A stretch of DNA of 64,000 bases, from positions 18,697 to 82,696 of the forward strand of contig CAKOPW010000005.1 in the NCBI GenBank assembly GCA_934101115.1, in the 5' to 3' direction. This document shows, piece by piece, positions 31,173 through 55,920 of this stretch. The notes beneath the pieces are model-generated. The model worked only from the letters and a program-made list of their open reading frames with translations, was not told the DNA's origin and made no database searches. The first letter of the stretch is position 1. Every line of letters begins with the position of its first letter. The translations under genes and the position numbers were made by a program. This DNA is from an uncultured Bacilli bacterium. GTDB lineage: Bacteria > Bacillota_I > Bacilli_A > RF39 > UBA660.

Positions 31173-31173
31173 T

Positions 31174-37567: not shown

Positions 37568-38490
37568 TGAGTAATTCATTGACTGAAGATTTTAATAAGT
37601 TTGTAGAAATTATTTCGCTAAATAGTAAAGAAGAAGAGGATATTAAAAGTAAACATAATAGTCTTATCAATATGATTATTGCTGATCCACCAAAAGGCTA
37701 TAATATTGTTAAAACAAGGCTTAGTGGTTCATATGCAAAGCATACAGTTTTAAATGAATATAACGTGGATAAACTACCAGATGTTGATATTATTACAATT
37801 ATAGATTCTTGTGATAAAAGTGTAGATGAGATAAATGCTGATTTTTTAAACTATTTTGAAGATAAAAAAGGTAAAGTAACTTCAAATATTAGGCAGCAAT
37901 CTAATTCTATTGGAATAATATATTCTAATATAAGCGTTGATATGGTAATTGGTATTCTTAAAGATGACAAATTAAAAATATGTTCTAATAAAAAACATGA
38001 TTGGATATCATCGAATGCCTTGATACATATTGATTACATGATAAAAAAGAATAAAGAATATGAAGGATTCAGTTATTATAGTTTAATGAAACTTTTCAAG
38101 TATTTAAATAAAGAACAATTGAATAATAAATTAAAGTCATATACATTAGAACAATTGATTCATAAATGTTGTCCAATTCCAACAGTAGGATTAAGATTAT
38201 ATCAAGCATTTGCTAAGACACTTGATAATATAAAAGAAATATCATTAATTACGGAAATTAGAGATTGTTGCGATGAAGATAAGGATGGTTATGATGAAAA
38301 AGATGTATTGATATTTGATTCCTTTAAAGAAGAAATTGCAAATTACTCTAGTTTAGCAAAAGAAGCATTAGATGGTAACAGAAAAAAATGGCAAGAGATA
38401 TTTGGAGATAGGTTTCCATGCCAACCAAATGAAATAGTAAAGAATGAGGCAAATTATGACAAAAGTCATACACCATGGTGTTATAAATAA
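37567..38490 (+). CDS. SMODS/CD-NTase-like nucleotidyltransferase
   Basis: Pol-beta NTase signature LSGSYAKHTVLNEYNVDKLPDVDIITII, i.e. GS...DxD. Confidence 0.5.
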   Translation: MSNSLTEDFNKFVEIISLNSKEEEDIKSKHNSLINMIIADPPKGYNIVKTRLSGSYAKHTVLNEYNVDKLPDVDIITIIDSCDKSVDEINADFLNYFEDKKGKVTSNIRQQSNSIGIIYSNISVDMVIGILKDDKLKICSNKKHDWISSNALIHIDYMIKKNKEYEGFSYYSLMKLFKYLNKEQLNNKLKSYTLEQLIHKCCPIPTVGLRLYQAFAKTLDNIKEISLITEIRDCCDEDKDGYDEKDVLIFDSFKEEIANYSSLAKEALDGNRKKWQEIFGDRFPCQPNEIVKNEANYDKSHTPWCYK

Positions 38491-38941
38491 AAAAAATATA
38501 GAAATATCTATAAAAAAATATGACTTTAAGATTCTTGATTATAATGAAAATAATGAATACATAAAAACAATTATTGAAAAAGATTACGCAAAAAGTTTTA
38601 ATATAGATTTTAATGGGATAATTAAAGTAGAATGTATAATAATGCGTAAGATGTATGATATGTTTTGTGTTTATACGTATCCAAAATTTAAAGAAATATC
38701 TAATATAATTCCAAAGAAGGCATTTTATCATATGTACGAAGATGGTAGTATTTGTTATGCGCCTCCTAAAAGACCATTGGTTGAAAAATGGAGTTTAGAA
38801 GATTTTATAAGTTCTATAGATTCCTTTTTTCATAACTATTTTTCGATTGAATATATTGGAGAAGGCGAATTATTTCAACTTGAACATGGTGAAAAAGGAT
38901 TAATACAATATGAATTTATTTATAGAGTTTCAGAAAATTAA
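38444..38941 (+). CDS. small E2 (UBC-fold)-like protein
   Basis: HMYEDGSICYAPP resembles the E2 HPN...G.IC active-site region. 165 aa. Overlaps the upstream gene. Confidence 0.4.
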   Translation: MRQIMTKVIHHGVINKKNIEISIKKYDFKILDYNENNEYIKTIIEKDYAKSFNIDFNGIIKVECIIMRKMYDMFCVYTYPKFKEISNIIPKKAFYHMYEDGSICYAPPKRPLVEKWSLEDFISSIDSFFHNYFSIEYIGEGELFQLEHGEKGLIQYEFIYRVSEN

Positions 38942-39669: not shown

Positions 39670-39978
39670 ATGAAAACAATTACAGTATGTGGAAGTTTAA
39701 AATTTTATAAAGAGATAGTGGAAATAGCTTTAAAAATGGAATTAGAAGGAAATTGTATGTTAGTTCCAATATACAATCCATACAATACGGACAAAGATGC
39801 ATTTACTGACGAAGAAATAAAGATGATTTCAAAAATGCATTATGAAAAAATAAAACTGTCCGACGCAATTTTAGTTGTAGATGTTGATGGTTATATCGGT
39901 AGCAGTACAAGTAAAGAGATAGAATACGCTAAATCACTTAATAAAGAAATCCTTTACTATAGTGATTTAACTAAATAA
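39670..39978 (+). CDS. hypothetical protein (possible nucleoside 2-deoxyribosyltransferase-like fold)
   Basis: TVCGSLKF...ILVVDVDGYIGSSTSKEIEYA. Weak pattern only. Confidence 0.25.
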   Translation: MKTITVCGSLKFYKEIVEIALKMELEGNCMLVPIYNPYNTDKDAFTDEEIKMISKMHYEKIKLSDAILVVDVDGYIGSSTSKEIEYAKSLNKEILYYSDLTK

Positions 39979-39995
39979 TGAAAGAGTGAGTTTAT

Positions 39996-40760
39996 ATGAA
40001 TAAAAAAAATTTAGAAACAATAATTTTATTAATAATTATACTTGTCTTAATTTCAATTATTTTTGTTTTAATTAAAAATAAAAATGATAATAAGCAAGAA
40101 CCAAAACAAGAAACATATGTTGCATACGTAAAAATTAATCCTTTGGTAAAACTTACATTTGATGTGAATTATGAATGTAATAAAGAAAATAAATGTGAAC
40201 CAGTAGATAATAAAATCACTAACATTGATTTACTAAACGATGATGCTAAAAATATATACTCTGATTTAGAATATAAGAATAAAAGTTTAGAATTAGTAAT
40301 TGCATCATTAATAGATGTTGCAGATCAAAACAACAAAGATATCAGTAAAGTAACTGTTACTTCAAATTATGAATTTGACAAAGAAGATTTAACAAAAAAA
40401 ATATTAGATAATTTGACATCGACTAAAAGTGTTGAAATAGGTTATAACTATCAAAAAAATATTGATGAAAGCAGTTTGATGGAAAAAACTTCTGCAAAAA
40501 CAACTACAACAACTACAGAAAAAACTACAACTAAATGTGTAAGTAAAAAATTTAAAAAGAAATTCACTTATGCTTATAAAACACAAGAAGAATGTAAAAA
40601 GCAAGGAAATAATGACTTCAATAATATGACTGACAATGTTGATGATAGCATTTTCTCATATGGATGTGAAGCTGTTAAAGATGACTGTGGAAACACATGG
40701 TATGGAGTAGTTTTCTATAAATGGTCAGAAGAAAAAGGAGAATATCCATATTATTACTAA
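39996..40760 (+). CDS. membrane-anchored secreted protein with Thr-rich linker
   Basis: N-terminal TM, TTTTTEKTTTK tract, C-terminal Cys-containing domain. Confidence 0.4.
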   Translation: MNKKNLETIILLIIILVLISIIFVLIKNKNDNKQEPKQETYVAYVKINPLVKLTFDVNYECNKENKCEPVDNKITNIDLLNDDAKNIYSDLEYKNKSLELVIASLIDVADQNNKDISKVTVTSNYEFDKEDLTKKILDNLTSTKSVEIGYNYQKNIDESSLMEKTSAKTTTTTTEKTTTKCVSKKFKKKFTYAYKTQEECKKQGNNDFNNMTDNVDDSIFSYGCEAVKDDCGNTWYGVVFYKWSEEKGEYPYYY

Positions 40761-40827
40761 AATTAGCTTAATCGCTAATTTTTTTATATTTTTATGTTAT
40801 ACTCTAAATATAAAAGGAGAATCATAA

Positions 40828-41268
40828 ATGAAAAGTGTCGAATTAAGGAAAGAACCAAATGACAATTTTAGAAATTGGATTATAGAAGAGTGGAAGCATC
40901 ACAATACGGTTGATCCATTTTATCAATTAAAAATAATAAAACCACAGGATTTAACTTTTAATGATAATGAAGAATATTATAAAATCATATATGAGAAACA
41001 AGAAATTGGGTTTATAGGCTTAAAAGTATATGATGATGAGATTTATATATATCGTTTTCTTATTGATAAAAAATTTAGAGGAAAAGGCATTGGAACCGAA
41101 GTATTAAATTTAATAATTGATCGCGCAAGGTATGAAAACAAAGATATTTCATTAGATGTATTTGAAAAAAATGAAGCAAAGAAATTATACGAACGAGTTG
41201 GATTTAAGAATCGTTATACAAACATGGTAATAAAAGTTAATGATAATATTGAATATAAAGAAAGGTAA
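40828..41268 (+). CDS. GNAT-family N-acetyltransferase
   Basis: FRGKGIGTEVLNLIIDRA acetyl-CoA binding motif. Confidence 0.7.
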   Translation: MKSVELRKEPNDNFRNWIIEEWKHHNTVDPFYQLKIIKPQDLTFNDNEEYYKIIYEKQEIGFIGLKVYDDEIYIYRFLIDKKFRGKGIGTEVLNLIIDRARYENKDISLDVFEKNEAKKLYERVGFKNRYTNMVIKVNDNIEYKER

Positions 41269-41271
41269 AAT

Positions 41272-42351
41272 ATGAAAAAGAATATATTAATAATAATTAT
41301 AGTTTTAGTAATTCTAGTTGGAGGTATTTATCTAGTCTTTATTTCAAAAAAACAACATGCTAATACAGAAACCACTGGAGTTTTAGTAGTACCAACATTT
41401 ATTGATAAAATAGATAATGATGCTGCTTGGTGTGCAACTTTTAATTTAATATGGAATGATTTGAAAAATGATCTAGTGAAACAAGACATTAAATTTGAAC
41501 AAGATAATACTTATGTTAACAATTTAAATAAAGAACTTTTTAAAGAAAGCGATATTTCAAACGACTACTATTATAAAGTATATGGAAAGAAGACATTAAA
41601 ATTAAAAAGTGAAATAGAAAAGAACATTAAAGAAAAGTTTGATCAAACTAGTGATATATTAGATAAATTTGATTGGAGTGAAGATTCATTAGATAATGGT
41701 AGCAGCGGTCTTGAAAGATATATTTTCTACACTATGCTATATCGTGAATTTAAATATAAAACAAAGTTTGTGAAGTTGAACGAAGATAAATTTAATAATG
41801 TAGAAAATGTTAAATATTTTGGTGTTAAAGATAATAAAGAGTCTTATAAGAATCAAATAAACATTATTTACTACAATAACGAAGATGATTTTGCAATTAA
41901 ATTAACTACAACAAGTAATGATGAAATTATTATAAATAAAAATCCAAAAGGAGATAATTTTGAAGAAATTTATAACAACATTATAATCACAGGTTCAAAA
42001 TATAAAGGAAATAAAGAATTTACTAAATTAGATAATTTTAAAATGCCATATATTAATTTAAATGTATTAAAAGAATATAATGAGTTAGAAAATAAAAAAT
42101 TTTATGACAAAGATAATAATACCTTAATCATAGATAAAGCTTTACAAACTATAAAATTTGAACTTGATGAAAATGGTGGAAAAATTAAAAGTGAGGCAGG
42201 CATGGATGTTGTTAAATTTTCGGCATCGAATCCTAAAGAAAAATCAAAAAATTTAAATGTTACTAAAACATTTGCAATATTTTTAAAAGAAGATTCTAAA
42301 GATAAACCATACTTTGCAGCTAAAATAGGTGACATTAGCAAATACCAATAA
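41272..42351 (+). CDS. membrane-anchored protein, possibly serpin-like
   Basis: N-terminal TM. C-terminal ...KTFAIFLKEDSKDKPYFAAKIGD resembles the serpin C-terminal signature. Weak. Confidence 0.3.
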   Translation: MKKNILIIIIVLVILVGGIYLVFISKKQHANTETTGVLVVPTFIDKIDNDAAWCATFNLIWNDLKNDLVKQDIKFEQDNTYVNNLNKELFKESDISNDYYYKVYGKKTLKLKSEIEKNIKEKFDQTSDILDKFDWSEDSLDNGSSGLERYIFYTMLYREFKYKTKFVKLNEDKFNNVENVKYFGVKDNKESYKNQINIIYYNNEDDFAIKLTTTSNDEIIINKNPKGDNFEEIYNNIIITGSKYKGNKEFTKLDNFKMPYINLNVLKEYNELENKKFYDKDNNTLIIDKALQTIKFELDENGGKIKSEAGMDVVKFSASNPKEKSKNLNVTKTFAIFLKEDSKDKPYFAAKIGDISKYQ

Positions 42352-42481
42352 TACCTTAATTTATAAACAATTGTAAGTAGTCTTTACATTTTAGTATAAA
42401 TATGATAATTTAATATTGACGACGAGAGCAATGCAAAAAGCATTTATGTTTTGCATGCTCTCTTTTTTGTGAGGTAAAAGT

Positions 42482-43267
42482 ATGTTGATTATATTGTTTT
42501 TATTTATAGTTTTTTCTATTTTTTTTATAAAGTATGTAAAAAGATGTGATTATATTGAAAGGTTAATAGCATTAGCGCTTGTTTTTTCTACGCTTGTTCC
42601 TCTAGCAATATATTATTCAGATTGGTTTAATTTACCTGGCAGATTAGGTTTTTTAGACAATATTGATTCAAATCGATGGTTTAATTTAGCTTCAGACTAT
42701 ATCATAACAATAATTGGAACTATTCTGAGTAGTTCTGTTGTAATTTTAACGACAATTCATCAGTTTCAAAAACAAACTGAAGAAAATAATAACAATAACA
42801 GAATAGCAAACATGCCTTTATTCAGATATGAGATAATGAATAAATATGAAAGTAATAAAGTAAATAGTGTTGACATTACTAATGAATCAAGTGATGAAAT
42901 AAAACTTTATTATTTAAACATAAATGTAAATAACGTAGGCCTAAATCATGCTAGAAATATAAAATATATTATATATTTAGATGATAAAGAAAAGACTCAA
43001 AATAATCTAATTAATCCACAATCAATTTTAAAAAACAATGATGATTGGAATTTAAATATAGTATTAAATCTTCCATTTTATAGAAAAAATAGTACAAACG
43101 AACATAAGGCAAAAATTATTTTTTATTATGAAGATTTACTTAGTAATAGATATAGTCAAGAGTTAACTTTGTATGTGGAAACCACCTTAGAATCGGCATC
43201 CTCATTTTCTGGATATTTGTTGTATATAACAAATATAGTAATAGAAGAAGAAAAGTATTTAAAATAA
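42482..43267 (+). CDS. membrane protein, hypothetical
   Basis: Three predicted TM segments at the N-terminus. No motif recognised. Confidence 0.35.
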   Translation: MLIILFLFIVFSIFFIKYVKRCDYIERLIALALVFSTLVPLAIYYSDWFNLPGRLGFLDNIDSNRWFNLASDYIITIIGTILSSSVVILTTIHQFQKQTEENNNNNRIANMPLFRYEIMNKYESNKVNSVDITNESSDEIKLYYLNINVNNVGLNHARNIKYIIYLDDKEKTQNNLINPQSILKNNDDWNLNIVLNLPFYRKNSTNEHKAKIIFYYEDLLSNRYSQELTLYVETTLESASSFSGYLLYITNIVIEEEKYLK

Positions 43268-43298
43268 GTATAAATAATAATAAAAGAAGGGTAAAAAA

Positions 43299-44966
43299 AT
43301 GAAAAAAATTGATAAATCAAAATATGTTGTTTTGGATGTTGAAACAAATGGACTATCATCAATAAATTGTGATCTATTATCAATCTCAATTTATAGCCCA
43401 GATAATCAAAAAAAGTATAATAGATTTTTACCACTGGAATTAAATGATTGTGTTTTAACAACCGGAATTAACGGAATAACAGAAGAAATGTTATTAAATA
43501 AATCTGCAATGAGTCAAGAAGAATTTAATATACTTATTAAGGATTTTGACTTAGAAAATCGTATAATTCTTCATTATGGTTCTATAGACGAAAAGTTTAT
43601 AAAAAATTATTTAAAAAGGAAAAAAATAAAAGGTTTTGAAAAATTAAAATTTTATAATATTAAACACAATATTATCTCTTCTAAGTTTTCAGAAGGTAAT
43701 ATTACAAAAGATAATCTTTGTGAACTTTATAGTATAGAAAATGTAACAAAAGTTCATTCAGGAATTAATGATTGTATTCTGGAGTGGAAACTTTTTGAAA
43801 AAATGAATGATAATAAGCTATTGGTAACAGGAAATAATGTTTATGAGTTTAATGAAGATTATATAATCCCAGCAAACTTTTTGCAAAATTATCCGAATTT
43901 TAAGTATCAAATTAAAAATTATCCTTGTATATATTATAATCTTGAGAAACTTGAGTCATTTATAGTTGATTCTAACCTTGTAAAAAAATTTAGTACAAAT
44001 ATAAGCGGTATAACAATAGAACATTTAATTAATAGCATGTTACATGTTGATGATAAAAGTTATGAAAATTTTGAATTTCTTGTGAATAATAAAACTAAGT
44101 TAAAAAAAATTGGAAATTTAAAATCCAATATAAAAACTATTTATATTATGAAAAATGAAGATGGTACAATTTCCGCACAAAATAAAAAAGATGGAAAAGA
44201 AGTAGAACAAATAAATCATGTTACAAACATTATTAAAGAGCAAATTGAGCCGTTAATTGATTATATTAAAATAAATATTTTTAACAATAAAAAAGTAATG
44301 TCTCAAGAATTAGTAATTAATTATGAAGATAATGTATTAGCAATGTGTGATTTATCAACGGATGACAAAATTTTAGAAATAAAAATTAGTAATATGGATG
44401 TAGATAAAATTAGATATCAGTTATTTTATGAGTCAAAGGGTAGAGAAATATTTTTATTGAAAACAAATTGGGAATTTTCATCAAAAAATAGACTAAAGTT
44501 TGTTATATATAAAGCTATACCTGTTTACAATAAAGTATATACAACTAAAAAAAATAATAATAAACTAAGACGTCAATTAGAATCTAAAATTAGAAATAAA
44601 AACGTGGAAATTGTTGAATATACAAATCAGCATTCAAATATAAAACTAAAATGTAAATTATGTGGAAATGAGTGGATATCATCTTATGACAAAATTTTAA
44701 AAAAACCATATTGTTTAAATTGCATTGAGGTAACGCGACCATCAAATTATGAAGAGCGATTAATAGCAACTGCAGAAAAAGGTAAAAAAGGGTTATTAAA
44801 GTATCAAAATGAATTAAAATATAAAACTAATGGAAATTTAATAGCTATTAATTATCACGGTGAAAAAGAAAAACTAACAGTTTTCTGTAATAAATGTGGA
44901 AACTATTGGAAAGCAAAGGCTAACAAATTATTAGAAGATCCAAATTGTCCAAAATGTAAAATTTAG
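43299..44966 (+). CDS. DnaQ-like (DEDDh) 3'-5' exonuclease domain protein with two C-terminal C4 zinc ribbons
   Basis: Exo I VLDVETNG and Exo III HSGINDCILEW. C-terminal CKLCGNEW...CLNC and CNKCGNYW...CPKC. Confidence 0.6.
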   Translation: MKKIDKSKYVVLDVETNGLSSINCDLLSISIYSPDNQKKYNRFLPLELNDCVLTTGINGITEEMLLNKSAMSQEEFNILIKDFDLENRIILHYGSIDEKFIKNYLKRKKIKGFEKLKFYNIKHNIISSKFSEGNITKDNLCELYSIENVTKVHSGINDCILEWKLFEKMNDNKLLVTGNNVYEFNEDYIIPANFLQNYPNFKYQIKNYPCIYYNLEKLESFIVDSNLVKKFSTNISGITIEHLINSMLHVDDKSYENFEFLVNNKTKLKKIGNLKSNIKTIYIMKNEDGTISAQNKKDGKEVEQINHVTNIIKEQIEPLIDYIKINIFNNKKVMSQELVINYEDNVLAMCDLSTDDKILEIKISNMDVDKIRYQLFYESKGREIFLLKTNWEFSSKNRLKFVIYKAIPVYNKVYTTKKNNNKLRRQLESKIRNKNVEIVEYTNQHSNIKLKCKLCGNEWISSYDKILKKPYCLNCIEVTRPSNYEERLIATAEKGKKGLLKYQNELKYKTNGNLIAINYHGEKEKLTVFCNKCGNYWKAKANKLLEDPNCPKCKI

Positions 44967-45121
44967 TTATTCTAGTTAAATCAAAAATATAAAATATTTT
45001 TAAAAACTTGCATTATAAAAAATGCATGATATAATTTAATTGTAAAAGAAAGCGCTAGTATAGGCTTCCCTTAAAGGACTTATACTGCGCTTTTTTTGTT
45101 GTAGTAAGGAGGTGTAAAAAT

Positions 45122-45328
45122 ATGTATGATTTTAAAGATGTTGATTCTAGCAATTTGCAATCAATTGCTATATCAGGTAACGACTTAATAATAAGATTCG
45201 TTAATGGAAGAATATATAGATATTATGGAGCAGCAAAAGAATATAACAATCTTTTAAACGCAAATAGCAAGGGAACCTATTTTGCAAATTATATAAAAAA
45301 TGAATATAAACCAAAAGAAGAAAAATAA
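45122..45328 (+). CDS. KTSC-domain protein
   Basis: SSNLQSIAISGNDLIIRFVNGRIYRYYG...SKGTYFANYIK pattern. Confidence 0.5.
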   Translation: MYDFKDVDSSNLQSIAISGNDLIIRFVNGRIYRYYGAAKEYNNLLNANSKGTYFANYIKNEYKPKEEK

Positions 45329-45336
45329 GAAAGTTA

Positions 45337-47244
45337 GTGAAGTATATGATTTTATTTAATAGTAATAATTTTGAAAGTCCAGACGTTGATTATTTAAGAT
45401 TTGATACAAATTTTTCAGTTGAAGTTAATACCGATAAAATAAAAATAATATTGGGACCAAATGGAATTGGGAAGTCTTCAATTTATAGAAATATTCAAGC
45501 AAGGCACCCTGAATATAGCTATATTGACTACGACAAAGTTGAGGAAGCAGTTTTAAAATCTAAAAATAGTATTATTGTCGCCTCTAAAATTTCGAAAATA
45601 GAAGAAAAAACTAATGAGTTAGAATCTATTAAAAATGTTATAGGAATAAAAGATTCATTTAGTTATTTTAATTTGGGAAATGCCACTAAACGAGCAAAAC
45701 AATTTAAAGATTTGAAAGGTGATCAAATAAATTTAATTACCGAATTTGATGATGAAAAATTAGAAGACTTTTTTGAATTAGGAAATAATTTAAGCCTGTT
45801 TATAGTAAAATACGGTAAAGATCTAATTGATCAAGTACAAGAAGAATTAAAAATTGAGGAAATAAGAGATTCATACAAAAAGAAATGCTTAAATTTAATT
45901 GATAACTATCTTTTAGATGATGAGCATATATGTCCAGTGTGTAACACAAAATTTGATGTTCCTATAAAAGAAAAAATTAAAGAAACACTTAGTAAAATAC
46001 AGGAGTCTAGTAATAAAATTGTAAATGACTATATTGCTGAGAATCCTAATGAAAGACCAACGGAAGTTTTTAATAATATCACTAAGCTCAAAAACGTAAT
46101 AGCCAACAATAAAATTACTATAAAAGATTTAGAGAACTTTATTATTTGTGGAGGAAACAGAGAAACTGCACAGTATATCAAAAATAATAAAGAAAGAATT
46201 ATTAGTTTAAATATTGAAATTAAATCTTTAAAAAGTGAAAAGGAAAAATTTTATAAGAATATTAAAAATATAGAAGATAGAATAAGGAGCATATTTGAAG
46301 GTCAGCTAAAAATACCACGCGAATCTATTATTTTTGATGATGAAAATAGTGAATTAATAATAAAATTGACTAGAAGTATTTCAAATTATAGTACAGGAGA
46401 GATTAACTTAATAACATTTATAGTTACTTTATTAAGTTTTATAAATAGTGATCAAGATACCATTATAATTGATGATCCTTTAAGCAGTTATGATATACCA
46501 AATCAGTATAAAATAATGTATGAAATAACTAAAGCAAATAGTAATAAAAATTTTCACATTCTAATTTTAACCCATAATATTGATTGCGTAAATATTGCCA
46601 ATTCACAAGATAAAAAATCTTATTCTATGGAACTTATGGATAAAATTGATGGAACAGTTTATTTAAACTCAATTAGTAGATTAGGAGACAATGGATTTCA
46701 AATTGAATATTTGTTAAAACAATTAGAAGATAGAAATGATTACAAATATACAGAATATTTGAAATTGTTGTCTAAAAAAGATGAGCTAGATAGAAATAAT
46801 GAAATTCACCAATTATTTCACTATGATGCCTTTTATGAAACTCCTAACGGTTTATGTAGTAATGAAGAATTAGTAAAAATTATAGAAAATATTGATAAAT
46901 CAAAAATAAAAAATAATGATTCGGTAATAAATTCTGCTAATAAAATTCTTTATCTGGCTGCATTGAGGGTTTGGATTGAAAAACAACTTTATGATAACAC
47001 TGATGACAAAGAAGGACTAAAAGCAAAAAAATATTTAGCTGCAAAAATTTCCTTTATCTTAGATGAAAATCATTGGACTGGTTCAAAAAAAATAAGCAAA
47101 GAATTTTTAATGAGTAAAAAAGTCCTTCTTAATCAAAATGATCATGCTACTAGCCAAAAAGAGCCTTTCTATTATGCTTTAAGTATATCTATGGATGAAA
47201 TTCAAAATGAATTAGTGGAAATAAAAAATCATTTTAATCCCTAA
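45337..47244 (+). CDS. ABC/Rad50-like ATPase with coiled-coil insertion carrying a CxxC zinc-hook and about 200-aa unassigned C-terminal domain
   Basis: Walker A ILGPNGIGKSSI, Walker B TIIIDDPLSSYD, H-loop ILILTHN. HICPVCNTKF sits in the middle of a long helical insertion. Confidence 0.6.
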   Translation: MKYMILFNSNNFESPDVDYLRFDTNFSVEVNTDKIKIILGPNGIGKSSIYRNIQARHPEYSYIDYDKVEEAVLKSKNSIIVASKISKIEEKTNELESIKNVIGIKDSFSYFNLGNATKRAKQFKDLKGDQINLITEFDDEKLEDFFELGNNLSLFIVKYGKDLIDQVQEELKIEEIRDSYKKKCLNLIDNYLLDDEHICPVCNTKFDVPIKEKIKETLSKIQESSNKIVNDYIAENPNERPTEVFNNITKLKNVIANNKITIKDLENFIICGGNRETAQYIKNNKERIISLNIEIKSLKSEKEKFYKNIKNIEDRIRSIFEGQLKIPRESIIFDDENSELIIKLTRSISNYSTGEINLITFIVTLLSFINSDQDTIIIDDPLSSYDIPNQYKIMYEITKANSNKNFHILILTHNIDCVNIANSQDKKSYSMELMDKIDGTVYLNSISRLGDNGFQIEYLLKQLEDRNDYKYTEYLKLLSKKDELDRNNEIHQLFHYDAFYETPNGLCSNEELVKIIENIDKSKIKNNDSVINSANKILYLAALRVWIEKQLYDNTDDKEGLKAKKYLAAKISFILDENHWTGSKKISKEFLMSKKVLLNQNDHATSQKEPFYYALSISMDEIQNELVEIKNHFNP

Positions 47245-47349
47245 ATAAAATTGTGTAGACCTATTTACTATAGTATTATTATATACTTTTTCTTGCACCA
47301 CTCATGACTTTGATATATAATGAGTACACGATAATGAAAGAGTGGTATA

Positions 47350-47898
47350 ATGTTTGAATTAGTTAAAGTAAGTCCCGATGATATAAGAAGTATAGAATTA
47401 CTAATTAAATATAGAGGTAAAGATTTTAGAAATAAATATCTTTACAAATGTGTTCGTGCTCATTATAACGATCCAAAATCTGATTATTTAAATCAACTAT
47501 CCGATATAGAAGCGATGATTTATATCGTAAATAAAGAGAATAATTGGAAGTATACACCAATTGAATATTTGTTATTACATGATGGCGTTCCTGTATCTTC
47601 ATGTGTAATAAGATTTGTAAACTCTTTAACTGGTGATGCTGATTTTGAAACCATTGAAAGTGAAAGACATAAAGGATATGCTCTTGAATGTTTAAAAAGA
47701 GTTGAAGAAGATTTATTTAAAAATACCGATCTTGTATTTTTAACAATGAAGGATTTAACAACTACTGGTGCCTCTACTAAAATAGCTATCTCTTTAGGAT
47801 ATAAGCTTGCAAATACAGGTTATTATATAAAGATGAATCCTTATATTTCTTTAGAAGAGGCAAAAGAAAGAGCTAAGTCTAATAGAAAAGCTATGTAA
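47350..47898 (+). CDS. hypothetical protein
   Basis: 182-aa ORF. No motif recognised. Confidence 0.3.
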   Translation: MFELVKVSPDDIRSIELLIKYRGKDFRNKYLYKCVRAHYNDPKSDYLNQLSDIEAMIYIVNKENNWKYTPIEYLLLHDGVPVSSCVIRFVNSLTGDADFETIESERHKGYALECLKRVEEDLFKNTDLVFLTMKDLTTTGASTKIAISLGYKLANTGYYIKMNPYISLEEAKERAKSNRKAM

Positions 47899-47974
47899 AT
47901 AAAAAAAAGATAAACATTTTTGTTTATTATTAAAAAAAATATAGTATAATATTTATAGAAAAGGAGTTTATATA

Positions 47975-48430
47975 ATGGCAAAGAATGAAGAAAAATCTTT
48001 TATGGATGTAAAAGATGAAACTAATAACTTTGATAAAAAGGATATCCAATCTGGAAAGGGTATGTCAGTTCTTTCTTACTTAGGAATTTTATCTTTAATT
48101 CCTTACTTTACAGAAAAGAAAAATGCGTATGTTAGATTTCATGCAGTTCAAGGATTAAACTTATTTATTTTTGAAATGATTTATTCAGTTCTTTATGGAA
48201 TTCTTACATCAGTTATCAAAGTTAATGGTAGTTGTGGAGCAGGATATTATGGAAGTCTTGCAGATGTACTTGGTGTAACTTGTAAAGTGACTCCATGGTG
48301 GGTAACACTTTCACTTTCTATAATTGGACTTGGATTTACTGCACTTGCTATTGTTGGTATCGTTAATGCTTGTCAAGATAAAGCAAAAGAATTACCAATA
48401 GTAAACCAAATTAAAATTATTAAAAAGTAG
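47975..48430 (+). CDS. DUF4870-like membrane protein
   Basis: SVLSYLGILSLIPYF...VRFHAVQGLNLFIF pattern. Confidence 0.5.
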   Translation: MAKNEEKSFMDVKDETNNFDKKDIQSGKGMSVLSYLGILSLIPYFTEKKNAYVRFHAVQGLNLFIFEMIYSVLYGILTSVIKVNGSCGAGYYGSLADVLGVTCKVTPWWVTLSLSIIGLGFTALAIVGIVNACQDKAKELPIVNQIKIIKK

Positions 48431-48520
48431 TTATACTTTTTAGACAACTGTAAAAAGTTGTTTTTTTATACTTTATAGCAGTAAATTTATGCTATAATAA
48501 TTCAAGAAAAGGAGAAAATT

Positions 48521-49060
48521 ATGGAATTAAAAGGAAGTAAAACAGAACAAAATTTAATGACTGCTTTCGCAGGAGAAAGTCAAGCAAGAAATAAATATAC
48601 ATATTTTGCAAGCAAGGCTAAAAAAGATGGTTATGAACAAATTGCAGCTATTTTTGAAGAAACTGCTAACAATGAAAAAGAACATGCAAAATTATGGTTT
48701 AAAGAATTAAATGGAGGTAATATTCCTTCTACACTTGAAAACTTATATGCAGCAGCTGAAGGTGAAAACTATGAGTGGACTGATATGTATGATGAATTTG
48801 CTAAAACAGCAAGAGCTGAAGGTTTTGATAGAATTGCTGAATTATTTGAAGGTGTAGCAGCAATTGAAAAAGAACATGAAGCTAGATATAGAAAACTTAT
48901 TGAAAATATTGAAGGTGGTTTAGTATTCTCTAAAGACGGAGATCGTATTTGGAAATGTAGAAACTGTGGACATATTTGTATTGGTTCATCAGCTCCAGAA
49001 GTTTGTCCAGTATGTAATCATCCACAAAGCTTCTTTGAAATTAAAGCTGAAAATTATTAG
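48521..49060 (+). CDS. rbr: rubrerythrin
   Basis: Ferritin-like diiron E..H motifs plus a C-terminal rubredoxin-like CRNCGH...CPVCNH. Confidence 0.9.
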
Positions 49061-50427
49061 AATGGTTCGCCATTCTTTTTTATTGTAATAAATTCTTTAT
49101 AATTTTTTCTTAACTCGCGAACAAATATACTTTCATGATTACTAACCATGATATAAATCTTTTTCTTGGTTCTTGTAAGAGCAACATAAAAAAGTCTTCT
49201 TTCTTCAGGATATTTAATTCCTTCATTGGTTTTTAAAAAATAGTCCAAAAGTACATGACTTTTATGTTTAAAAGGAATATTATCTGAATTAACAAGTATT
49301 ACATTATCTGCTTCAAGTCCTTTTGATTTATGAATTGTATATTTGTTTTCCCATTTAATGTTTTCTATGTCTTTATTACATCTTCCAATAATCATGGTAT
49401 CTTCAGTTATGTATTTTAAAACCTCAGTAAGTTGATAATTATATAAAATAACAATTGGTCTATCTTCATGGATACGTGATATAATATCTTTTCGAAGTTG
49501 ATACTTATTTCTCATAACAAATTTGCCACTTGCAGTAATTAGTTCTTGAGAATTGCGGTAAGTATACTTGAGTTGACGATAACTAACATTATCTAAATAA
49601 TCTTTTATATTAACAAAAATATCTAAAGTGCATCCAGAAAAAGCATAAATGCTTTGCCAATCATCGCCAACTAAAAATAATTTTATATCATTATATTTCA
49701 TAATATTTCTAATCAGATTTAGTCTTAATACGCTTGTATCCTGAAATTCATCAATAATTATATATTTATAATTAACATAAACTTTTTTACATGATGAATT
49801 CTTTATCATATCATCAAAATCTATTTTGCCGCTTGAACTTAATTCTTCAGTATATATTATATATATTTCTAATATCATTCTTAATATTTCCCGATTTATA
49901 TAACCAAAATTTTTAAACTTTAAATTTCTAATATCTAAATCATTACTTTTAATATATTTAATAAAGGTGATAATAACTTTTTTTAATTCTAAATAATCAT
50001 GCGTTTTCATGATTTTTTCCATATTACTTTCAGTAAAAAATATTCTTTTAAATATTTTATTTCTTAGTTTGTTATTCCTTATAAATGAAAGCATATATTC
50101 ATCAATTATATAGCTTAAATAGTCATCACTTACAATGCTTACTTTTTCATCCATTAAAGATAAACCTAATTTATGAAAAGTCATTACATTAACTTTATAG
50201 TTCATTTTTTCTAGTTTAACTTTTAAATTATTAACAGTTTCATTGGTTAAAGATATACACAAAATTTCATTTTCTTTTATATCTTTTTCTTCTATTAAAT
50301 ATTTTACTTTACCCAAAATTGTTTGGGTTTTACCAGAACCAGCACCAGCTGAAACTATAACTGTTTTAGCTTCATCTTTAATTGCACTCACTTGAGCATC
50401 GTCTAAATTAACTCCAAATATTTCCAT
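49057..50427 (-). CDS. UvrD/Rep-family helicase (short)
   Basis: Start taken at MEIFG, which follows a [23 protein letters not shown] Walker [11 protein letters not shown], motif [11 protein letters not shown]. Confidence 0.7.
49060..49082. terminator. hairpin plus T-run shared by convergent genes
   Basis: gaatggttcgccattc followed by ttttttt. Overlaps the last codons of the convergent helicase gene. Confidence 0.5.
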
Positions 50428-50479
50428 TGGATATCCTCCTAATAAATATATTAACAAAAAAAAGAAGAATTTCTTCTTC

Positions 50480-53400
50480 TTAATCAAGTTTCTTAAATAC
50501 GTCTTTATTTATTGAATATAAATAAATATTTGTTGGTTTTGAATAATTTTCTTCTATATATTTTTTATATCCATCAAGTTGAATTTTATATTCATCGCTT
50601 TCAAGATTAGAAAGTTTGTAATCTATTATATCAAAATGATCATCATATTCTAAAAGTAAATCAATAAATCCGTGATATGTATTTTCACCATCAGTAAAAC
50701 GAATTTCATGTTCTTTATATATTTTAGCATTTTTTATATTTTTTACTTCGTCATGTTTCAAAAAGTTCATAACCTTATTCTTTTCAACATCTCCAATTGG
50801 AAGAGTATCTAAATTGTCATTTTTAAAATCGTATACTTCAAAGACATAGTGCATAAAAGTACCAAAATCAAGTTTCTTTCTTAAGTTATCATCAATTATA
50901 GTATTTATTGCTTTTGAAAAATGCTTAGTTTCTAACATTTGATTATCAATGCTTAAATTTTCTGTATGAATTAGTTTATCACTTCTAGGAATCATTTCTT
51001 TATAATTGCTTAGTTTAATAACATTATAATTCTTATTAACATCTAATGTCTCTATATCTTTTTTTTCTTCTAATTCAGATAATCCAAGAGAATTTATAAT
51101 CTCTGCAAAACTTTTAAATTTTAATAATGATGATACTTCATTGATATTTGGAACTTCCAACTTTGGAGAAACCATTATAACTTTCTCTTTAGCTCTTGTC
51201 AAAGCTACATAATATAATCTAATTTTCTCAGAAAGTGTTTCTTTCATTTCATTAACAGCTGAAGCTGTAGAAACAAAGGAAGTACCAACACCATTATTAT
51301 AAAATGGCAAAAGTATACCGTAGTTACTTGATAAACTAAATAGATCTTTACTTGGCGATTTATAAAAATTAGATGTTAACATTGGGAGATATACATATGG
51401 AAACTCCAATCCTTTAGAAGTATGAATTGTCATAATCTTAACTGAGTTATCATCGCCAGAACTAATCTTCATTTTTATCTCACTTTTATCTTCAAGTATT
51501 TGATCAAAATAGTCATTTAAGGCATAGATATTCATACCAAATTTGTTTAAATCTGTTGAGTTATTAACAAAATATTCTATCTTTATAAGACGTTCATTGA
51601 TATTATCAACTCTTAAAAGCTTTGTATAAAAATCAAAATCAGTTATTATTCTACTAAGAATATCACGATTAGATAATGCATCTATTTCTTTAGAAATATT
51701 TAAACATTTAAAATAAATATCAGTTTCTTCATATTTTTTATTTGTAATGATATCAAATAATTCATCGTCATCCATTTCATAAAGATATGATCTTGCAATA
51801 CTAGCAAAAGCATGACTAAAATCCGAATCAAATACGCGTTTTTTTATTTTTATAATCAAAGTAATAATATTTTTAAGTAAATGAATTTCATCTTCATCTT
51901 TAATGTTGATATCTTTTTTTATTGTAGTAGGAATATTATTTGCTTCCAATATCTTTTTAAAATCATCAAATGATGTTGATTTATCAATTAATATGGTAAA
52001 ATCTTTAAAATCAATATCTCTAGTACACATCTTATCATCTTTATAATAAGTAACTTGTTCTTTATTTTTTATATGTTTTTTTATATCATCAGCAATGATA
52101 AATGCTTCTTTTTCAACACGAGAATATTTACCCTTATCCTCATATGTTAAAATAGATGTTGAGTAGTAATCATTGTTTGATGCTTCATAAGCTTTATTTC
52201 CATACACCATCATATGTTCTCTCTTATAGTCACATCCACCTATATCATCAGACATAATGTTAGAAAATATGTTATTGATAATTGTAACAACGCTATTTCG
52301 TGAACGAAAGTTTTCCATTAAATCTATTTTAAAACCATTATTTCCAATCTTATAATTATCATACTTAGTTTTAAATATATATGGATTGGCATTTCTAAAA
52401 CGATAGATAGATTGCTTAATATCTCCAACCATATAAACATTATTGTTTTGAATATAAGAAATAAATTCTTCTTGAATATCATTTGTGTCTTGATATTCAT
52501 CAATCATAATTTCTTTAGTTTTATACTTAATTTCATTTCTTACATCTTCATGGTCTCTTACTAATTCAATTGCTTTTAAAGCTATATCAATAAACTCATA
52601 AGCATTTTTTTCTTTCTTATACTCTTGTAGTTTTTCATGTAATGTCTTTAAAATATCAATAACACAATAAGCATAATCTTTTGTTGATAAGTAATTGTTT
52701 ATCAACATTTTTTTATCACCAAAAGAACAAGCTAGTTTTAATTTCTTTCGAGCATCAGCTATTTTTGGTGAAATTTCTTTAGCTTCATCATCATAAGCAC
52801 CATTTCGATTTTGAGCTAGTCTAAATGATAAAGTATCAAGAAGTTCATCATAAGAACTTGCAGCTGCAAATTCAACAATAGACTTTTCATTTTTTTCAAC
52901 TGTCTCCGGTAAGGCATAATCGTTAAGCTTGTTAATTAGTTCCAATACATCATCTCTTAAACTGAATATATAGTCTTCAAAAGAAGTAAATGTTTGATTT
53001 ACAAAATCCTCACTATAAAAAGTATCTATATAGCTATCTAAAAATCCTTCTAAATCTATTTTATTTTGAATACTTTTATAAACAGATTTAATACTGTTTC
53101 TTATTTGTTTGTCATTTTTTAAAGTTTGTTCACGAATAAACTTACAGAAGTTTTCATCACTTACATATTTGTTTTCAAATATTTCATCTATGATTTTATC
53201 AATCTCTAAATTAACAATATTGGCATCAATTATAGTAAAGTGATCGCTCATATTTAAAACATTAGCATATTTTTTAACCATACTTTGAGCAAATGAATCA
53301 AAAGTAGTTATATAAGCTGAATCAACAAACTCTTCCATATGAGCAATACTTTTATTTTTCTTTATAACTTTTCTTATACGATCTTTCATTTCAGCAGCAG

Positions 53401-53578
53401 CCGCGTTAGTAAATGTTAATATGATAAGTTCATCTATATTAACTCCCTCAGTAAGCAGTCTTTCAACTCTAGTTTTTAAAACTGTTGTTTTACCAGAACC
53501 AGCTCCAGCGGATACGATGATGTTAGTATTACTTTTATTTACGGCTAAACTTTGTTTCTCTGTTAAATTTGGCATCAC
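50480..53578 (-). CDS. addA: ATP-dependent helicase/nuclease subunit A (AddA/RexA)
   Basis: UvrD N-terminus [13 protein letters not shown] and a C-terminal RecB-type nuclease GFIDLLLEYDDHFDIIDYKLS. Confidence 0.85.
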   Translation of the reverse strand: MMPNLTEKQSLAVNKSNTNIIVSAGAGSGKTTVLKTRVERLLTEGVNIDELIILTFTNAAAAEMKDRIRKVIKKNKSIAHMEEFVDSAYITTFDSFAQSMVKKYANVLNMSDHFTIIDANIVNLEIDKIIDEIFENKYVSDENFCKFIREQTLKNDKQIRNSIKSVYKSIQNKIDLEGFLDSYIDTFYSEDFVNQTFTSFEDYIFSLRDDVLELINKLNDYALPETVEKNEKSIVEFAAASSYDELLDTLSFRLAQNRNGAYDDEAKEISPKIADARKKLKLACSFGDKKMLINNYLSTKDYAYCVIDILKTLHEKLQEYKKEKNAYEFIDIALKAIELVRDHEDVRNEIKYKTKEIMIDEYQDTNDIQEEFISYIQNNNVYMVGDIKQSIYRFRNANPYIFKTKYDNYKIGNNGFKIDLMENFRSRNSVVTIINNIFSNIMSDDIGGCDYKREHMMVYGNKAYEASNNDYYSTSILTYEDKGKYSRVEKEAFIIADDIKKHIKNKEQVTYYKDDKMCTRDIDFKDFTILIDKSTSFDDFKKILEANNIPTTIKKDINIKDEDEIHLLKNIITLIIKIKKRVFDSDFSHAFASIARSYLYEMDDDELFDIITNKKYEETDIYFKCLNISKEIDALSNRDILSRIITDFDFYTKLLRVDNINERLIKIEYFVNNSTDLNKFGMNIYALNDYFDQILEDKSEIKMKISSGDDNSVKIMTIHTSKGLEFPYVYLPMLTSNFYKSPSKDLFSLSSNYGILLPFYNNGVGTSFVSTASAVNEMKETLSEKIRLYYVALTRAKEKVIMVSPKLEVPNINEVSSLLKFKSFAEIINSLGLSELEEKKDIETLDVNKNYNVIKLSNYKEMIPRSDKLIHTENLSIDNQMLETKHFSKAINTIIDDNLRKKLDFGTFMHYVFEVYDFKNDNLDTLPIGDVEKNKVMNFLKHDEVKNIKNAKIYKEHEIRFTDGENTYHGFIDLLLEYDDHFDIIDYKLSNLESDEYKIQLDGYKKYIEENYSKPTNIYLYSINKDVFKKLD

Positions 53579-55920
53579 TCATCATCTCCTTTAATTTCTT
53601 TTATTTCATAATCGCTTGGTACTTTAAAACATATATCTTTATATGGACAGAAGTTACATCCATCAACTAGCTTTTCGATTTTAACTGGTTTTATTTCAAA
53701 ATTACCATTGCTTACATTATTTATACATTCTTCTATACGATTTTTAACTAAAAGCTTAAGCTCTTCTTTTTCTTCTACAGTTTTAACTCTAGCTCCATAT
53801 TTTAAATCACATTCATCTTTATCATAAGCAAGTCCTTTAATAACACTTGATTTTTCATACGTATCATCCATATCTTTAATATTTTCAAGTGGACCAAAGG
53901 TGATTCCATCAAGACGTAAACTTTGTTCTTTTGGCTCTGAATTACCAAGAGAGAATACTTTCTTTTGGCTTAAAAGATGTTGTAAATAAATTCCTTGAAC
54001 AGACGTATCTGCTTCAAGTTCATTCAATAAGTATAAATAAATTGGTAATTGTAGATTAAGACCGAATTCAAATAATTTACTATTTATTTTATCTCCACCG
54101 GTTTTATAATCAATTATAAAAGCTTTATTATCCATATAAATAATTTTATCTACGAATCCTTTAATAGTTGTATTGAAAGGATGTTTTACTTCTAAAACCT
54201 TACTTGCCTCAAATTTTTGTCTAGTTATATTAAAATGTTCGTATTGTTTTTTTATAACATCATAAATAAACAATATTTCTTCTTTTAAAGTACTAATGAA
54301 AAATTTATCTTTATTGTTAAGTGGCATATCAACATTTTTTACATATTCATCATATATAAAACCTGGATCAACATCATCTCTTAAAGAAACTTCTAAAGTA
54401 TGATGAAAGGTATTTCCAATTAGAGTATCTAACGTATCATTATATTCATCAATTTTAAGAACACTTTTTAAATAAAATTTAAAGGGACATTCATAATATT
54501 TTTCAATATTAGAATATGAAAAATTAAGTTTACCATCTATAACATTTATTAACTTATCTTTGCTTACATTTTTGTACTTATGATTATATTCATTGTAAGG
54601 AATATTATAGTTATTGCTTAAAGCAATCGTATTATCATCAAGTTCGTTAAATTTTATCAATTTATCCAGTTTATTAGCAAGAATAATTTTGTTATTTAAG
54701 TCCGAATATGCAGATATAGTCGTGAATCCCTTAATAACTGAAATATTTTCACTTTCAATTAAAGGAGATGGAAGTATCTCTCCAGAAACTGTATTCTTTT
54801 TATATGTAATAGTTAAATTTTTTATATTAGATATACTATTCAATAAAGAAACTTTTATATCACGATTGTATTCATAACTTTTACTTAAAAAAGCTGGCTT
54901 TATATCGTCATTTAAGTAATCAATATCTTTCTTTATTTTTGGAATACTTCCTTGATTAAAGTTTATTAAGAAGACGTATTCATCATCCTCAAATATATTA
55001 TTAAGAAGTTCCGTGGTAGTGATTTCTTTTTCATAATGATTAACTCCTATACGAGCTCTTTTGGTTTCTTCGATAAATAAATCTAATATATCTTCGTCTT
55101 TAACCCAATAATAAGTATCAAGAATACTTTTTATTTTTAAATATACTTTATTATTAAATTCATTGTTATCAACATCAAATCTAAGTTTTATTTTAGCAAG
55201 CAAAGAATAGAAATTATTACTAAAATTATTTATGGCATATTCTCCAATAGCTGTATCATAAACACAGGTTTCACTTTTTAAATAATAAGGGATTCCTAAA
55301 CAACCAAATATTCTTTTCATAGTAAAAAAGTATGAATCATCAACATTTGCAATATATATTTTATCCAAGCTAACACCAGAAGAAATAAGGTCAGCAATCC
55401 TTTCTCCAACATATGAAATTTCATCTTGTATATTGTTAAATTCTATTGCTTCATGTGTAATCTTTTTACAAGGATGCTCCATAATAGTGACGTCTTCTAG
55501 CATACTCAACATATATCTATTAAAAGAATCAATATAATCAAAACCATATACATATATTTTTTTATTTGCCAACAAAGATTTAAATAAAGGATCTTTAATA
55601 AGCAAGTTCAATTCATTTAAAAAGTCTTTGATATCACATAAAAACTTATATTTAGGATTATCATATGTTTTATTCTCTAAATAATAAAGATTCATAATAT
55701 ATTTTCTTGCAAGATCATAATCAAGATTAAATTTTCTCATAACACGAAATATTGCTTCATTTGAATAATCAAAAAACAAGCCTTTTTTTAACTCTGTAAA
55801 ACTCATAATTTTTATTGATTTTAATATTTTATGTTCATTGATATAATCTAATACTTTAAATTTTATATTGTTATCTATAATTAGAATAGAATTATCTTCA
55901 ATTGAGTTTAAAAAGTCCAT
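53575..55920 (-). CDS. addB: ATP-dependent helicase/nuclease subunit B (AddB/RexB), compact form
   Basis: C-terminal PD-(D/E)xK with Fe-S cysteine cluster (CNFCPYKDICF). Coupled to addA. 781 aa. Confidence 0.75.
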   Translation of the reverse strand: MDFLNSIEDNSILIIDNNIKFKVLDYINEHKILKSIKIMSFTELKKGLFFDYSNEAIFRVMRKFNLDYDLARKYIMNLYYLENKTYDNPKYKFLCDIKDFLNELNLLIKDPLFKSLLANKKIYVYGFDYIDSFNRYMLSMLEDVTIMEHPCKKITHEAIEFNNIQDEISYVGERIADLISSGVSLDKIYIANVDDSYFFTMKRIFGCLGIPYYLKSETCVYDTAIGEYAINNFSNNFYSLLAKIKLRFDVDNNEFNNKVYLKIKSILDTYYWVKDEDILDLFIEETKRARIGVNHYEKEITTTELLNNIFEDDEYVFLINFNQGSIPKIKKDIDYLNDDIKPAFLSKSYEYNRDIKVSLLNSISNIKNLTITYKKNTVSGEILPSPLIESENISVIKGFTTISAYSDLNNKIILANKLDKLIKFNELDDNTIALSNNYNIPYNEYNHKYKNVSKDKLINVIDGKLNFSYSNIEKYYECPFKFYLKSVLKIDEYNDTLDTLIGNTFHHTLEVSLRDDVDPGFIYDEYVKNVDMPLNNKDKFFISTLKEEILFIYDVIKKQYEHFNITRQKFEASKVLEVKHPFNTTIKGFVDKIIYMDNKAFIIDYKTGGDKINSKLFEFGLNLQLPIYLYLLNELEADTSVQGIYLQHLLSQKKVFSLGNSEPKEQSLRLDGITFGPLENIKDMDDTYEKSSVIKGLAYDKDECDLKYGARVKTVEEKEELKLLVKNRIEECINNVSNGNFEIKPVKIEKLVDGCNFCPYKDICFKVPSDYEIKEIKGDDE

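Follow-up and report, generated by a model that had tools for sequence, protein, structure and literature searches.

Background

ATPase sensors of the ATP-binding cassette (ABC) type that act together with tRNA-cutting nucleases are emerging as a common design of phage defence, with PrrC, RloC, PARIS, the Septu/retron pair PtuAB and OLD as examples. Both RloC and fusions of an ABC ATPase with a HEPN domain have been known since 2008-2013. The nuclease of RloC is marked by the motif R-x3-E-x36-52-H, in which the His is often preceded by a Ser, and activity requires each of the three residues (PMC2610378); the residues that are essential in PrrC, namely H295, R320, E324, R349, N352 and H356, are conserved in RloC as well (PMC3025547). 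The RloC nuclease is reported to be under the control of the protein's zinc hook and of its DNA-dependent ATPase (PMC3458546), and a further study reports that RloC is activated by an inducer of DNA breaks (PMC3874168). RloC-like genes have been found in association with restriction-modification and DOC genes (PMC3710099). Here we compare with these systems a gene located at positions 45346-47244 of a 64,000-nucleotide (nt) stretch of DNA from an uncultured Bacilli bacterium (contig CAKOPW010000005.1, positions 18,697 to 82,696; in the following the window). The gene encodes a compact ABC ATPase whose head and zinc hook are homologous to those of RloC-like proteins, and we lean, with rather more confidence than doubt, towards the reading that this single gene is a self-contained RloC-like tRNA-cutting nuclease (tRNase) of abortive infection and a compact member of the RloC/PrrC superfamily, with the product of the preceding KTSC gene as a lineage-specific accessory.

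An earlier annotation of the same DNA, made from its letters and open reading frames (ORFs) and referred to here as the original prediction, had combined the ATPase gene with the KTSC gene and a preceding exonuclease gene into one defence module of three genes. Our analysis retains the ATPase as the core of a presumed defence system and separates the exonuclease from it.

Results and Discussion

The ATG at 45346 is the probable start of the ATPase, because the N-termini of its homologues align at this position and P0001, a protein of 97% identity, has a length of 632 amino acids (aa). Residue numbers in this text count from the GTG at 45337. In the AlphaFold2 (AF2) model, which has a predicted local distance difference test score (pLDDT) of 84, an ABC head is combined with a helical insert of about 180 aa (approximately aa 150-330), and a beta-hairpin (aa 429-446) leads into an all-helical C-terminal domain of about 185 aa. 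Within the helical insert, which is predicted to be antiparallel, CPVC occupies the loop between two long helices (approximately aa 150-187 and 210-235). The C-terminal lobe of the head carries the signature YSTGE (aa 351-355), the Walker B/D-loop segment IIIDDPLSSYD (aa 376-386) and the H-loop residue H413; the coordinates of these and all other features are collected in Table 1. Conservation was scored over 83 representatives of the family with at most 50% mutual identity. Invariant in the ATPase and hook are N42, G43, K46, C199, P200, C202, S352, G354, E355, D379, D380, D386 and H413, and in the C-terminal domain H495, N509, K536, R544, E548, K595, N599, H603 and P610. Expressed as the share of representatives, C199 and C202 are kept in 100%, P200 in 95%, R544 and E548 in 100%, K595 in 98%, N599 in 100% and H603 in 99%.

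By fold as well as by profile the ATPase resembles a range of DNA-associated and defence-related proteins. Foldseek returned the heads of SMC proteins, Smc5/6, the Lamassu protein LmuB (9hqx_B, E 4.9e-4), Rad50 and OLD, all with E values between 1e-4 and 1e-3. The PADLOC models that match, namely LmuB, PDC-S06, mad3/mad8, PtuA, AriA, GajA and, in two members of the family, PrrC (4.7e-7 for P0116), cover the ATPase part only. The Pfam family AAA_13 (PF13166), which we take to include PrrC, is matched just below its gathering score by eight of 27 members, with matches that stop before the C-terminal domain; the best of them reaches 35.5 bits against the gathering threshold of 36, the matches end at about profile position 621 of 713, and the window ATPase gives no AAA_13 match at E 0.01.

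For a direct comparison of profiles we used as reference 40 RloC-like AAA_13 proteins, seeded by the ABC-HEPN gene of a P2-like prophage of avian pathogenic Escherichia coli (APEC) O1 (APECO1_RS04465); the homologues of this seed all carry PF13166 and several are named 'wobble nucleotide-excising tRNase' in their source. When run in local mode, hhalign aligned the 83 family representatives with these 40 proteins at a probability of 99.3% and E 2e-20, with columns 9-627 set against columns 1-730 and CPVC placed on the CPFC of the RloC-like proteins. Since the alignment is near full length at this probability and the hooks coincide in it, homology is established for this part of the protein: the ATPase and hook of the window family are homologous to those of RloC-like AAA_13 proteins. 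The original prediction of an ABC-type ATPase with a helical insertion that carries CPVC, a hook like those of Rad50 and RloC, is thereby borne out, both by the profile comparison with RloC-like proteins and by the invariance of the hook.

The reference gene in APEC O1 (L049 45933-48149; NC_008563 925932-928148) codes for a 738-aa RloC-like AAA_13 protein with a CPFC hook and occupies a variable slot of the P2-like prophage, with the replication endonuclease gene on one side and the portal gene on the other. In phage P2 this region is known to hold accessory genes, old among them.

The effector function of the protein would reside in its C-terminal domain, which on suggestive evidence from its sequence is probably a strongly diverged nuclease domain of the PrrC/RloC type. 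The conserved residues of the family follow one another as H495...R544-x3-E548...K595-x3-N599-x3-H603, that is in the same types and the same order as the set described for PrrC and RloC; the N-x3-H spacing is identical to that of PrrC, and the residue found most commonly before H603 is Ser. The RloC-like reference proteins carry N619, R646-x3-E650 and R683-x2-N686-x3-H690 in their C-terminal domains, and when these domains were aligned by themselves with those of the window family, hhalign paired N509 with N619, R544 with R646, E548 with E650, N599 with N686 and H603 with H690. None of 150 column-shuffled controls yielded five such conserved polar pairs; the maximum was four, in two of the 150.

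Other observations speak against this assignment. The alignment of the C-terminal domains scores 15.8 with an E value of 0.1, a score which was reached by eight of the 150 shuffles, and the full-length alignment puts the domain in a different register. The distance from Glu to His is 51-71 residues and thus in nearly all members beyond the published RloC range of 36-52, and the position equivalent to PrrC R349 is taken by a Lys that is one residue off. We found no classical HEPN Rx4-6H motif, whose place in HEPN proteins is the start of the last core helix of an all-alpha domain, and no match to the C-terminal domain in Pfam (E up to 10), PADLOC or, by Foldseek, the PDB, and a HMMER search of 1.84 billion proteins with the domain returned the ATPase family alone. 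Finally, several members have nuclease genes tightly adjacent, either for a DpnII/MboI-fold protein 10-12 nt upstream or for a Metallophos protein downstream, so that at least some members could have their effector in trans.

The original prediction had seen a loose resemblance to the PrrC/RloC triad in the C-terminal 200 aa and had pointed to the string DRNNEIH. An invariant set of Arg, Glu and His is present, at another site: the conserved candidate triad is found 55-115 residues downstream of DRNNEIH. The string itself (aa 485-491) fits R-N-x3-H and was considered as a catalytic or HEPN Rx4H motif; we rejected it, as its Arg is kept in 2, its Glu in 12 and its His in 32 of the 83 representatives, and judging from this alignment it is a chance string. 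Among the outliers of the family, P0348 (aa 673-839) and P0350 (aa 194-358) bear, after the conserved C-terminal domain, mutually similar extensions of about 165 aa.

The family is small and its distribution patchy. It comprises 219 full-length homologues of about 630 aa, and a search of 1.84 billion cluster representatives with a profile of the C-terminal domain found 146 proteins (clusters at 50% identity), nearly all of them 600-720 aa long and with the domain at the C-terminus. The hosts are mostly metagenome-assembled genomes from the gut that are assigned to 'uncultured Bacilli', Erysipelotrichaceae, Mollicutes and Clostridium; further members are scattered in Bacteroidota, Cloacimonadota, Eggerthellaceae and Hydrogenedentota, so that the family is sporadic across phyla. 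Among 2.9 million viral contigs no more than two contain it. For gene neighbourhoods we used 37 other ATPase loci, six from look-ups of exact proteins and 31 from a scan of one genome per species (185,579 species genomes) that was made with the alignment of the C-terminal domain and not with the full-length alignment. Around the relatives we found cytosine and adenine methylases, GmrSD, McrBC, AbiJ, AbiE, Fic, a Schlafen-like helicase, DpnII/MboI-fold proteins and a type I HsdR. Together with the defence genes of the window described below, this agrees with the defence role that the original prediction had proposed. No universal partner gene was found across the ATPase loci, nor did BLAST/phmmer clustering and Pfam detect a shared upstream partner among the neighbours of about 200-250 aa. 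At the locus of one relative (L054 1-6911) the ATPase gene has a type I HsdR gene and a gene for a T5orf172 protein upstream of it, which is the 'restriction-linked ORF' arrangement behind the name rlo.

How might such a protein work? We infer, by analogy, an RNase activity, a tRNA target, the nature of the trigger and the role of the KTSC protein. The ATPase has a Rad50-like ABC head, a short coiled-coil insert with a CPxC hook and a C-terminal domain which most probably is a metal-independent RNase of the PrrC/RloC (HEPN-like) type. Two protomers may dimerise through their heads and zinc hooks, as suggested by the analogy with RloC, and the head would sense a cue that is associated with infection, in a RloC-like manner possibly DNA ends or damage by way of a DNA-dependent ATPase. 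Sensing would then release the latent C-terminal nuclease, and the released nuclease would cut the anticodon loops of tRNAs, with the consequence that translation is shut down and the infection is aborted.

But is the effector really part of the same polypeptide? The main rival of the self-contained tRNase regards the ATPase as a Rad50/SMC-like sensor or scaffold which, in the manner of Lamassu LmuB or of SbcC, serves separate and interchangeable effector nucleases, and its C-terminal domain as a docking adaptor and not as an RNase. This would be in keeping with the match to the PADLOC model of LmuB (2e-8), with the Foldseek matches to SMC heads, LmuB (9hqx_B) and Rad50, and with the neighbours of some relatives: a gene for a DpnII/MboI-fold protein of about 260 aa precedes the ATPase gene by 10-12 nt in L001, L010, L048, L050 and L051, and a gene for a Metallophos protein, from the family of Mre11 and SbcD, follows it in L016, L048 and L050, whereas L004, L007 and L015 contain fragments of such a gene. 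Most loci, that of the window included, however, have no nuclease partner, and none is shared family-wide. Eight polar residues of the C-terminal domain (two each of His, Asn and Lys, and one each of Arg and Glu) are near-invariant whatever the neighbours are, which is typical of an active site. Moreover, there are no adjacent homologues of LmuA or LmuC, as PADLOC identified neither among the neighbours of the window ATPase nor among 79 neighbours of its relatives, and the Metallophos neighbour, when tried as a relative of Mre11 or SbcD, gave no detectable sequence match to PDB structures of either. We consider a pure sensor or scaffold rather unlikely.

The neighbours also recur in combination. 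A cassette of a protein of about 237 aa, the DpnII/MboI-fold protein and the ATPase, often with the gene for a Metallophos protein of about 237 aa downstream, is found at five loci (Table 1) and is reminiscent of Rad50-Mre11; this cassette looks like a multi-gene variant of the ATPase system. Other family members thus have different partners, such as the DpnII/MboI-fold nuclease upstream or the metallophosphoesterase downstream, or none. A more far-reaching proposal than the self-contained tRNase, which we put forward tentatively and do not expect to hold in full, is that the family of hook ATPases of about 630 aa constitutes a distinct, unnamed defence system ('mini-RloC'), that its C-terminal domain represents a new diverged branch of PrrC/RloC RNases, and that interchangeable small partners set the trigger or add a second, DNA-directed effector; in the lineage of the window the KTSC protein would then be a dedicated subunit that binds nucleic acid and couples recognition of DNA or tRNA to activation of the nuclease.

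In the lineage of the window the partner is the KTSC protein. As the original prediction had stated, a mini-protein with this domain is encoded upstream of the ATPase and downstream of the exonuclease; it scores 45 bits against the Pfam cut-off of 25 and covers profile positions 2-58 of 58 (PF13619). The domain is named for its occurrence at the C-terminus of some lysyl-tRNA synthetases. A KTSC gene stands upstream of the ATPase gene only in the window, in the near-identical contig L045, whose ATPase is 97% identical to that of the window, and in L046/L047, which are syntenic with window positions 39676-48546. The end of the KTSC gene and the start of the ATPase gene are 8-17 nt apart, and the two genes are probably co-transcribed. 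Between the window and L046 the KTSC proteins are 64% and the ATPases 67% identical, as compared to 85-95% for the products of the flanking genes, and the two must therefore have diverged, or have been replaced, as one unit, which is typical of defence loci. KTSC and ATPase thus form a cassette, in the window lineage only.

The cassette is preceded by a conspicuous leader. Between the stop codon of the exonuclease gene and the KTSC gene, a hairpin (45045-45097; folding energy -24.4 kcal/mol, z -4.8) ends in a U7 tract and is followed by the KTSC ribosome-binding site AAGGAGG. Because a promoter-like site (TTGCAT-16 nt-TGaTATAAT, 45008-45035) directly precedes the hairpin, this terminator-like structure comes to lie within what is presumed to be the 5' leader of the KTSC-ATPase transcript, where it might be an attenuator that holds a toxic gene at low expression. 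In L045 and L046 the leader has hardly changed and shows one compensatory pair, although identity in the coding part of the cassette is only 64-67%. No Rfam family matched the hairpin in a search of 42-49 kb.

Do the two genes then form a toxin-antitoxin-like pair, in which the KTSC protein keeps the ATPase-nuclease inactive until infection? The tight spacing, the leader common to both genes and their divergence as one cassette would be expected of such a pair, and PrrC is likewise silenced by a partner (PMC2610378). Nearly all members of the ATPase family, however, are encoded without a KTSC gene, so that the ATPase must be self-controlled, like RloC, and descriptions of the KTSC domain speak of a module that binds DNA or possibly RNA rather than of an antitoxin; in other conflict systems it is termed a DNA-binding domain (PMC9503650). 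We therefore hold the toxin-antitoxin explanation to be improbable. As part of the self-contained tRNase favoured here, the KTSC protein is probably a lineage-specific accessory, and most likely a nucleic-acid-binding accessory or regulator.

The third gene of the original prediction has a different history. The description of its 555-aa product as a DnaQ-type exonuclease N-terminus with two C-terminal CxxCGxxW...CxxC ribbons is correct: aa 10-166 match the PADLOC DEDDh model at 1.4e-13, the best sequence matches in the PDB are Cas2-DEDDh and the PolC exonuclease, and the Exo I, II and III motifs (DxE, D and Hx4D) are intact as D13-x-E15, D97 in SIDEKF and H153-SGIN-D158. The first ribbon is CKLCGNEW...CLNC (aa 452-475) and the second CNKCGNYW...CPKC (aa 530-553), with a match to Pfam DUF4379, a treble-clef finger. 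This architecture is conserved in a family of at least 691 clusters. At the seven loci examined for it (L038-L044) a homologue was present in every case, with HNH, helix-turn-helix (HTH), toxin-antitoxin and resolvase genes as neighbours, and neither a KTSC nor an ATPase gene lay beside the exonuclease gene at any of them. Conversely, neither the exonuclease nor the KTSC protein had a BLASTP homologue at any of the 37 other ATPase loci. In L045 the exonuclease gene has become a pseudogene, in which a 14-nt deletion has removed the HSGIND catalytic motif and shifted the frame, and in L046/L047 only the first 38 codons are left and the rest is deleted, with KTSC and ATPase genes intact. The exonuclease gene is an independent and dispensable transcription unit which is unrelated to the ATPase system and is being lost.

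That the three genes act together as one defence module is consequently very improbable. They are adjacent, on the same strand and within a defence island, and the gene order is the same on the near-identical contig L045. Their co-occurrence across genomes, on which the claim can be judged, was nevertheless nil at the 37 ATPase loci and at the seven exonuclease loci, and because the genes are not co-conserved they do not form one module. The contexts of the exonuclease homologues, the hairpin with its U7 tract and the separate promoter-like site between exonuclease and KTSC genes, and the frameshift and deletions in L045 and L046/L047 all point the same way. Least probable of all, and very improbable likewise, is a housekeeping role of the ATPase in DNA repair, as a protein of the SbcC, RecN or RecF type. 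In favour of it, the best PDB sequence match is a Rad50 head, and the UvrD-like and AddA-like genes 2-9 kb downstream on the opposite strand, part of an AddAB-like set, would fit. Against it, the family is very small and patchy, with 146 clusters among 1.84 billion proteins and 31 loci in 185,579 species genomes; its gene neighbourhoods vary and have a defence character; the ATPase diverges much faster than its syntenic flanks; and its extra C-terminal domain is absent from the SMC and Rad50 proteins of repair.

The window, which has a G+C content of about 25%, is a defence island in which an LlaJI-type restriction-modification system is found together with a Fic protein and a cyclic-oligonucleotide-based antiphage signalling system (CBASS). 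The components of the LlaJI-type system (27557-32433) are a 5-methylcytosine (m5C) methylase (682 aa), RE_LlaJI and a McrB-like protein of the AAA_5 family; after it (32625-36406) follow the genes for a 906-aa superfamily 1 (SF1) helicase (AAA_30/UvrD_C_2) and for the Fic/DOC protein. The CBASS-type system (36818-38941) has overlapping ORFs for a DUF6602 protein (249 aa), an SMODS/CD-NTase cyclase (307 aa), which matches the PADLOC Cyclase model at 9e-35, and an E2-like protein (165 aa). A GNAT acetyltransferase gene of the window (40828-41268) has no counterpart in L046, which is syntenic in other respects, and is a second presence/absence difference of the island. The segment 43299-47898 that the original prediction covered contains four ORFs, all on the forward strand; its end takes in a 182-aa ORF which had been left unmentioned. 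This ORF has no match in Pfam, NCBIfam, PADLOC or PHROG, is 85% identical to its counterpart in L046, within the range of the other flanking genes, and neither it nor two upstream ORFs have a BLASTP homologue at the 37 other ATPase loci. Further downstream on the reverse strand (49057-55920), a UvrD-like ORF of 476 aa, unusual in its TTG start codon, overlaps the end of the gene for a 1032-aa AddA-like helicase-nuclease and a 781-aa ORF, perhaps AddB-like. The UvrD-like ORF converges with a rubrerythrin gene (48521-49060).

Table 1. Positions of the features discussed, in window coordinates unless a locus is named
Feature	Position	Strand	Remarks
DEDDh exonuclease with two treble-clef zinc ribbons, 555 aa	43299..44966	+	Separate neighbour gene
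Leader 5' of KTSC	45008..45098	+	Promoter-like site, hairpin, U7, ribosome-binding site
KTSC-domain mini-protein, 68 aa	45122..45328	+	Pfam KTSC 9e-12
Compact RloC-like ABC ATPase, 632 aa	45346..47244	+	ATG start; 635 aa if GTG 45337 is used
Walker A GPNGIGKS, aa 40-47	45454..45477	+	N42, G43 and K46 (nearly) invariant in 83 representatives
Zinc hook C199-P-V-C202	45931..45942	+	Tip of helical insert; weak match to Rad50 hook structure 1l8d
C-terminal lobe of ATPase head	46387..46575	+	Invariant columns; match to Rad50 head 3qf7, 8.9e-8
Family-specific all-helical C-terminal domain, aa ~450-635 (putative RNase)	46684..47241	+	AF2 pLDDT 86
R544-V-W-I-E548	46966..46980	+	Candidate equivalent of PrrC R320-x3-E324 and RloC R692-x3-E696
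K595-x3-N599-x3-H603	47119..47145	+	Candidate equivalent of PrrC R349-x2-N352-x3-H356
ORF, 182 aa	47350..47898	+	Conserved flank gene, outside the cassette
Recurrent cassette loci	L001 6479-9908; L010 5753-9314; L048 4473-8703; L050 47-3593; L051 445-3146		

Conclusions

What is new here is a compact, unannotated branch of the known ABC-HEPN and RloC proteins with a C-terminal domain that is an orphan at the sequence level. This branch stays below the AAA_13 threshold and has neither a usable NCBIfam name nor a confident PADLOC assignment, and since the models of Pfam, NCBIfam and PADLOC miss it, it goes uncounted in censuses of defence systems. If our reading of the ATPase as a self-contained tRNase is true, the family adds to the known designs a minimal, hooked version on a single polypeptide, from poorly studied gut Bacilli and Clostridia. 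Its small size and its invariant residues would make it a tractable model for the way in which a Rad50-like head and a zinc hook gate a fused RNase. The result also clears away a false three-gene module and shows the exonuclease, which had been assigned to it, to be an unrelated gene in the process of being lost.

[quoted passage not shown] RloC is, however, larger (720-800 aa, with a longer coil, as compared to about 630 aa) and reaches the gathering score of PF13166, below which the window family scores. The C-terminal domains of the two have no detectable profile similarity, the interval from Glu to His is 36-52 residues in RloC and 51-71 in the window family, the second Arg of RloC is replaced by Lys, and the window family has an additional invariant His, H495, within FHYD. 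Unlike RloC, it resides mostly in metagenome genomes of gut Bacilli and Clostridia. PrrC, the tRNA-Lys anticodon nuclease of E. coli, is likewise an ABC-type NTPase fused to a C-terminal nuclease, which in the window family is putative; its essential H, R-x3-E, R/K and N-x3-H recur there in the same order, and its PADLOC model matches the ATPase lobe of two members. Different from the window family, PrrC lacks a coiled-coil or hook insert, and its gene always lies within a type I hsd locus, by which it is kept silent, whereas the window gene has no hsd flanks and only the relative in L054 lies beside HsdR.

With Rad50 and SbcC the window ATPase has in common the motifs of the head and a hook, CPVC, at the apex of an antiparallel helical insert. 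These proteins, however, have a long coiled coil and no extra C-terminal domain, whereas the coil of the window ATPase is very short and a C-terminal domain is added; they work with Mre11 or SbcD as partner, for which the window has no Metallophos counterpart and only a subset of the relatives does; and the window ATPase is neither a core gene nor placed in a repair neighbourhood. Lamassu LmuB, PDC-S06, MADS mad3/mad8, AriA, PtuA and GajA, finally, give weak but consistent profile or fold matches to the ATPase and resemble it in their defence-island setting. The similarity to LmuB is confined to the ATPase and coil, and systems of the Lamassu, AriA and PtuA type rely on LmuA/LmuC, AriB, PtuB or a TOPRIM partner, whereas the window system has none of these and instead carries its putative effector fused in cis.

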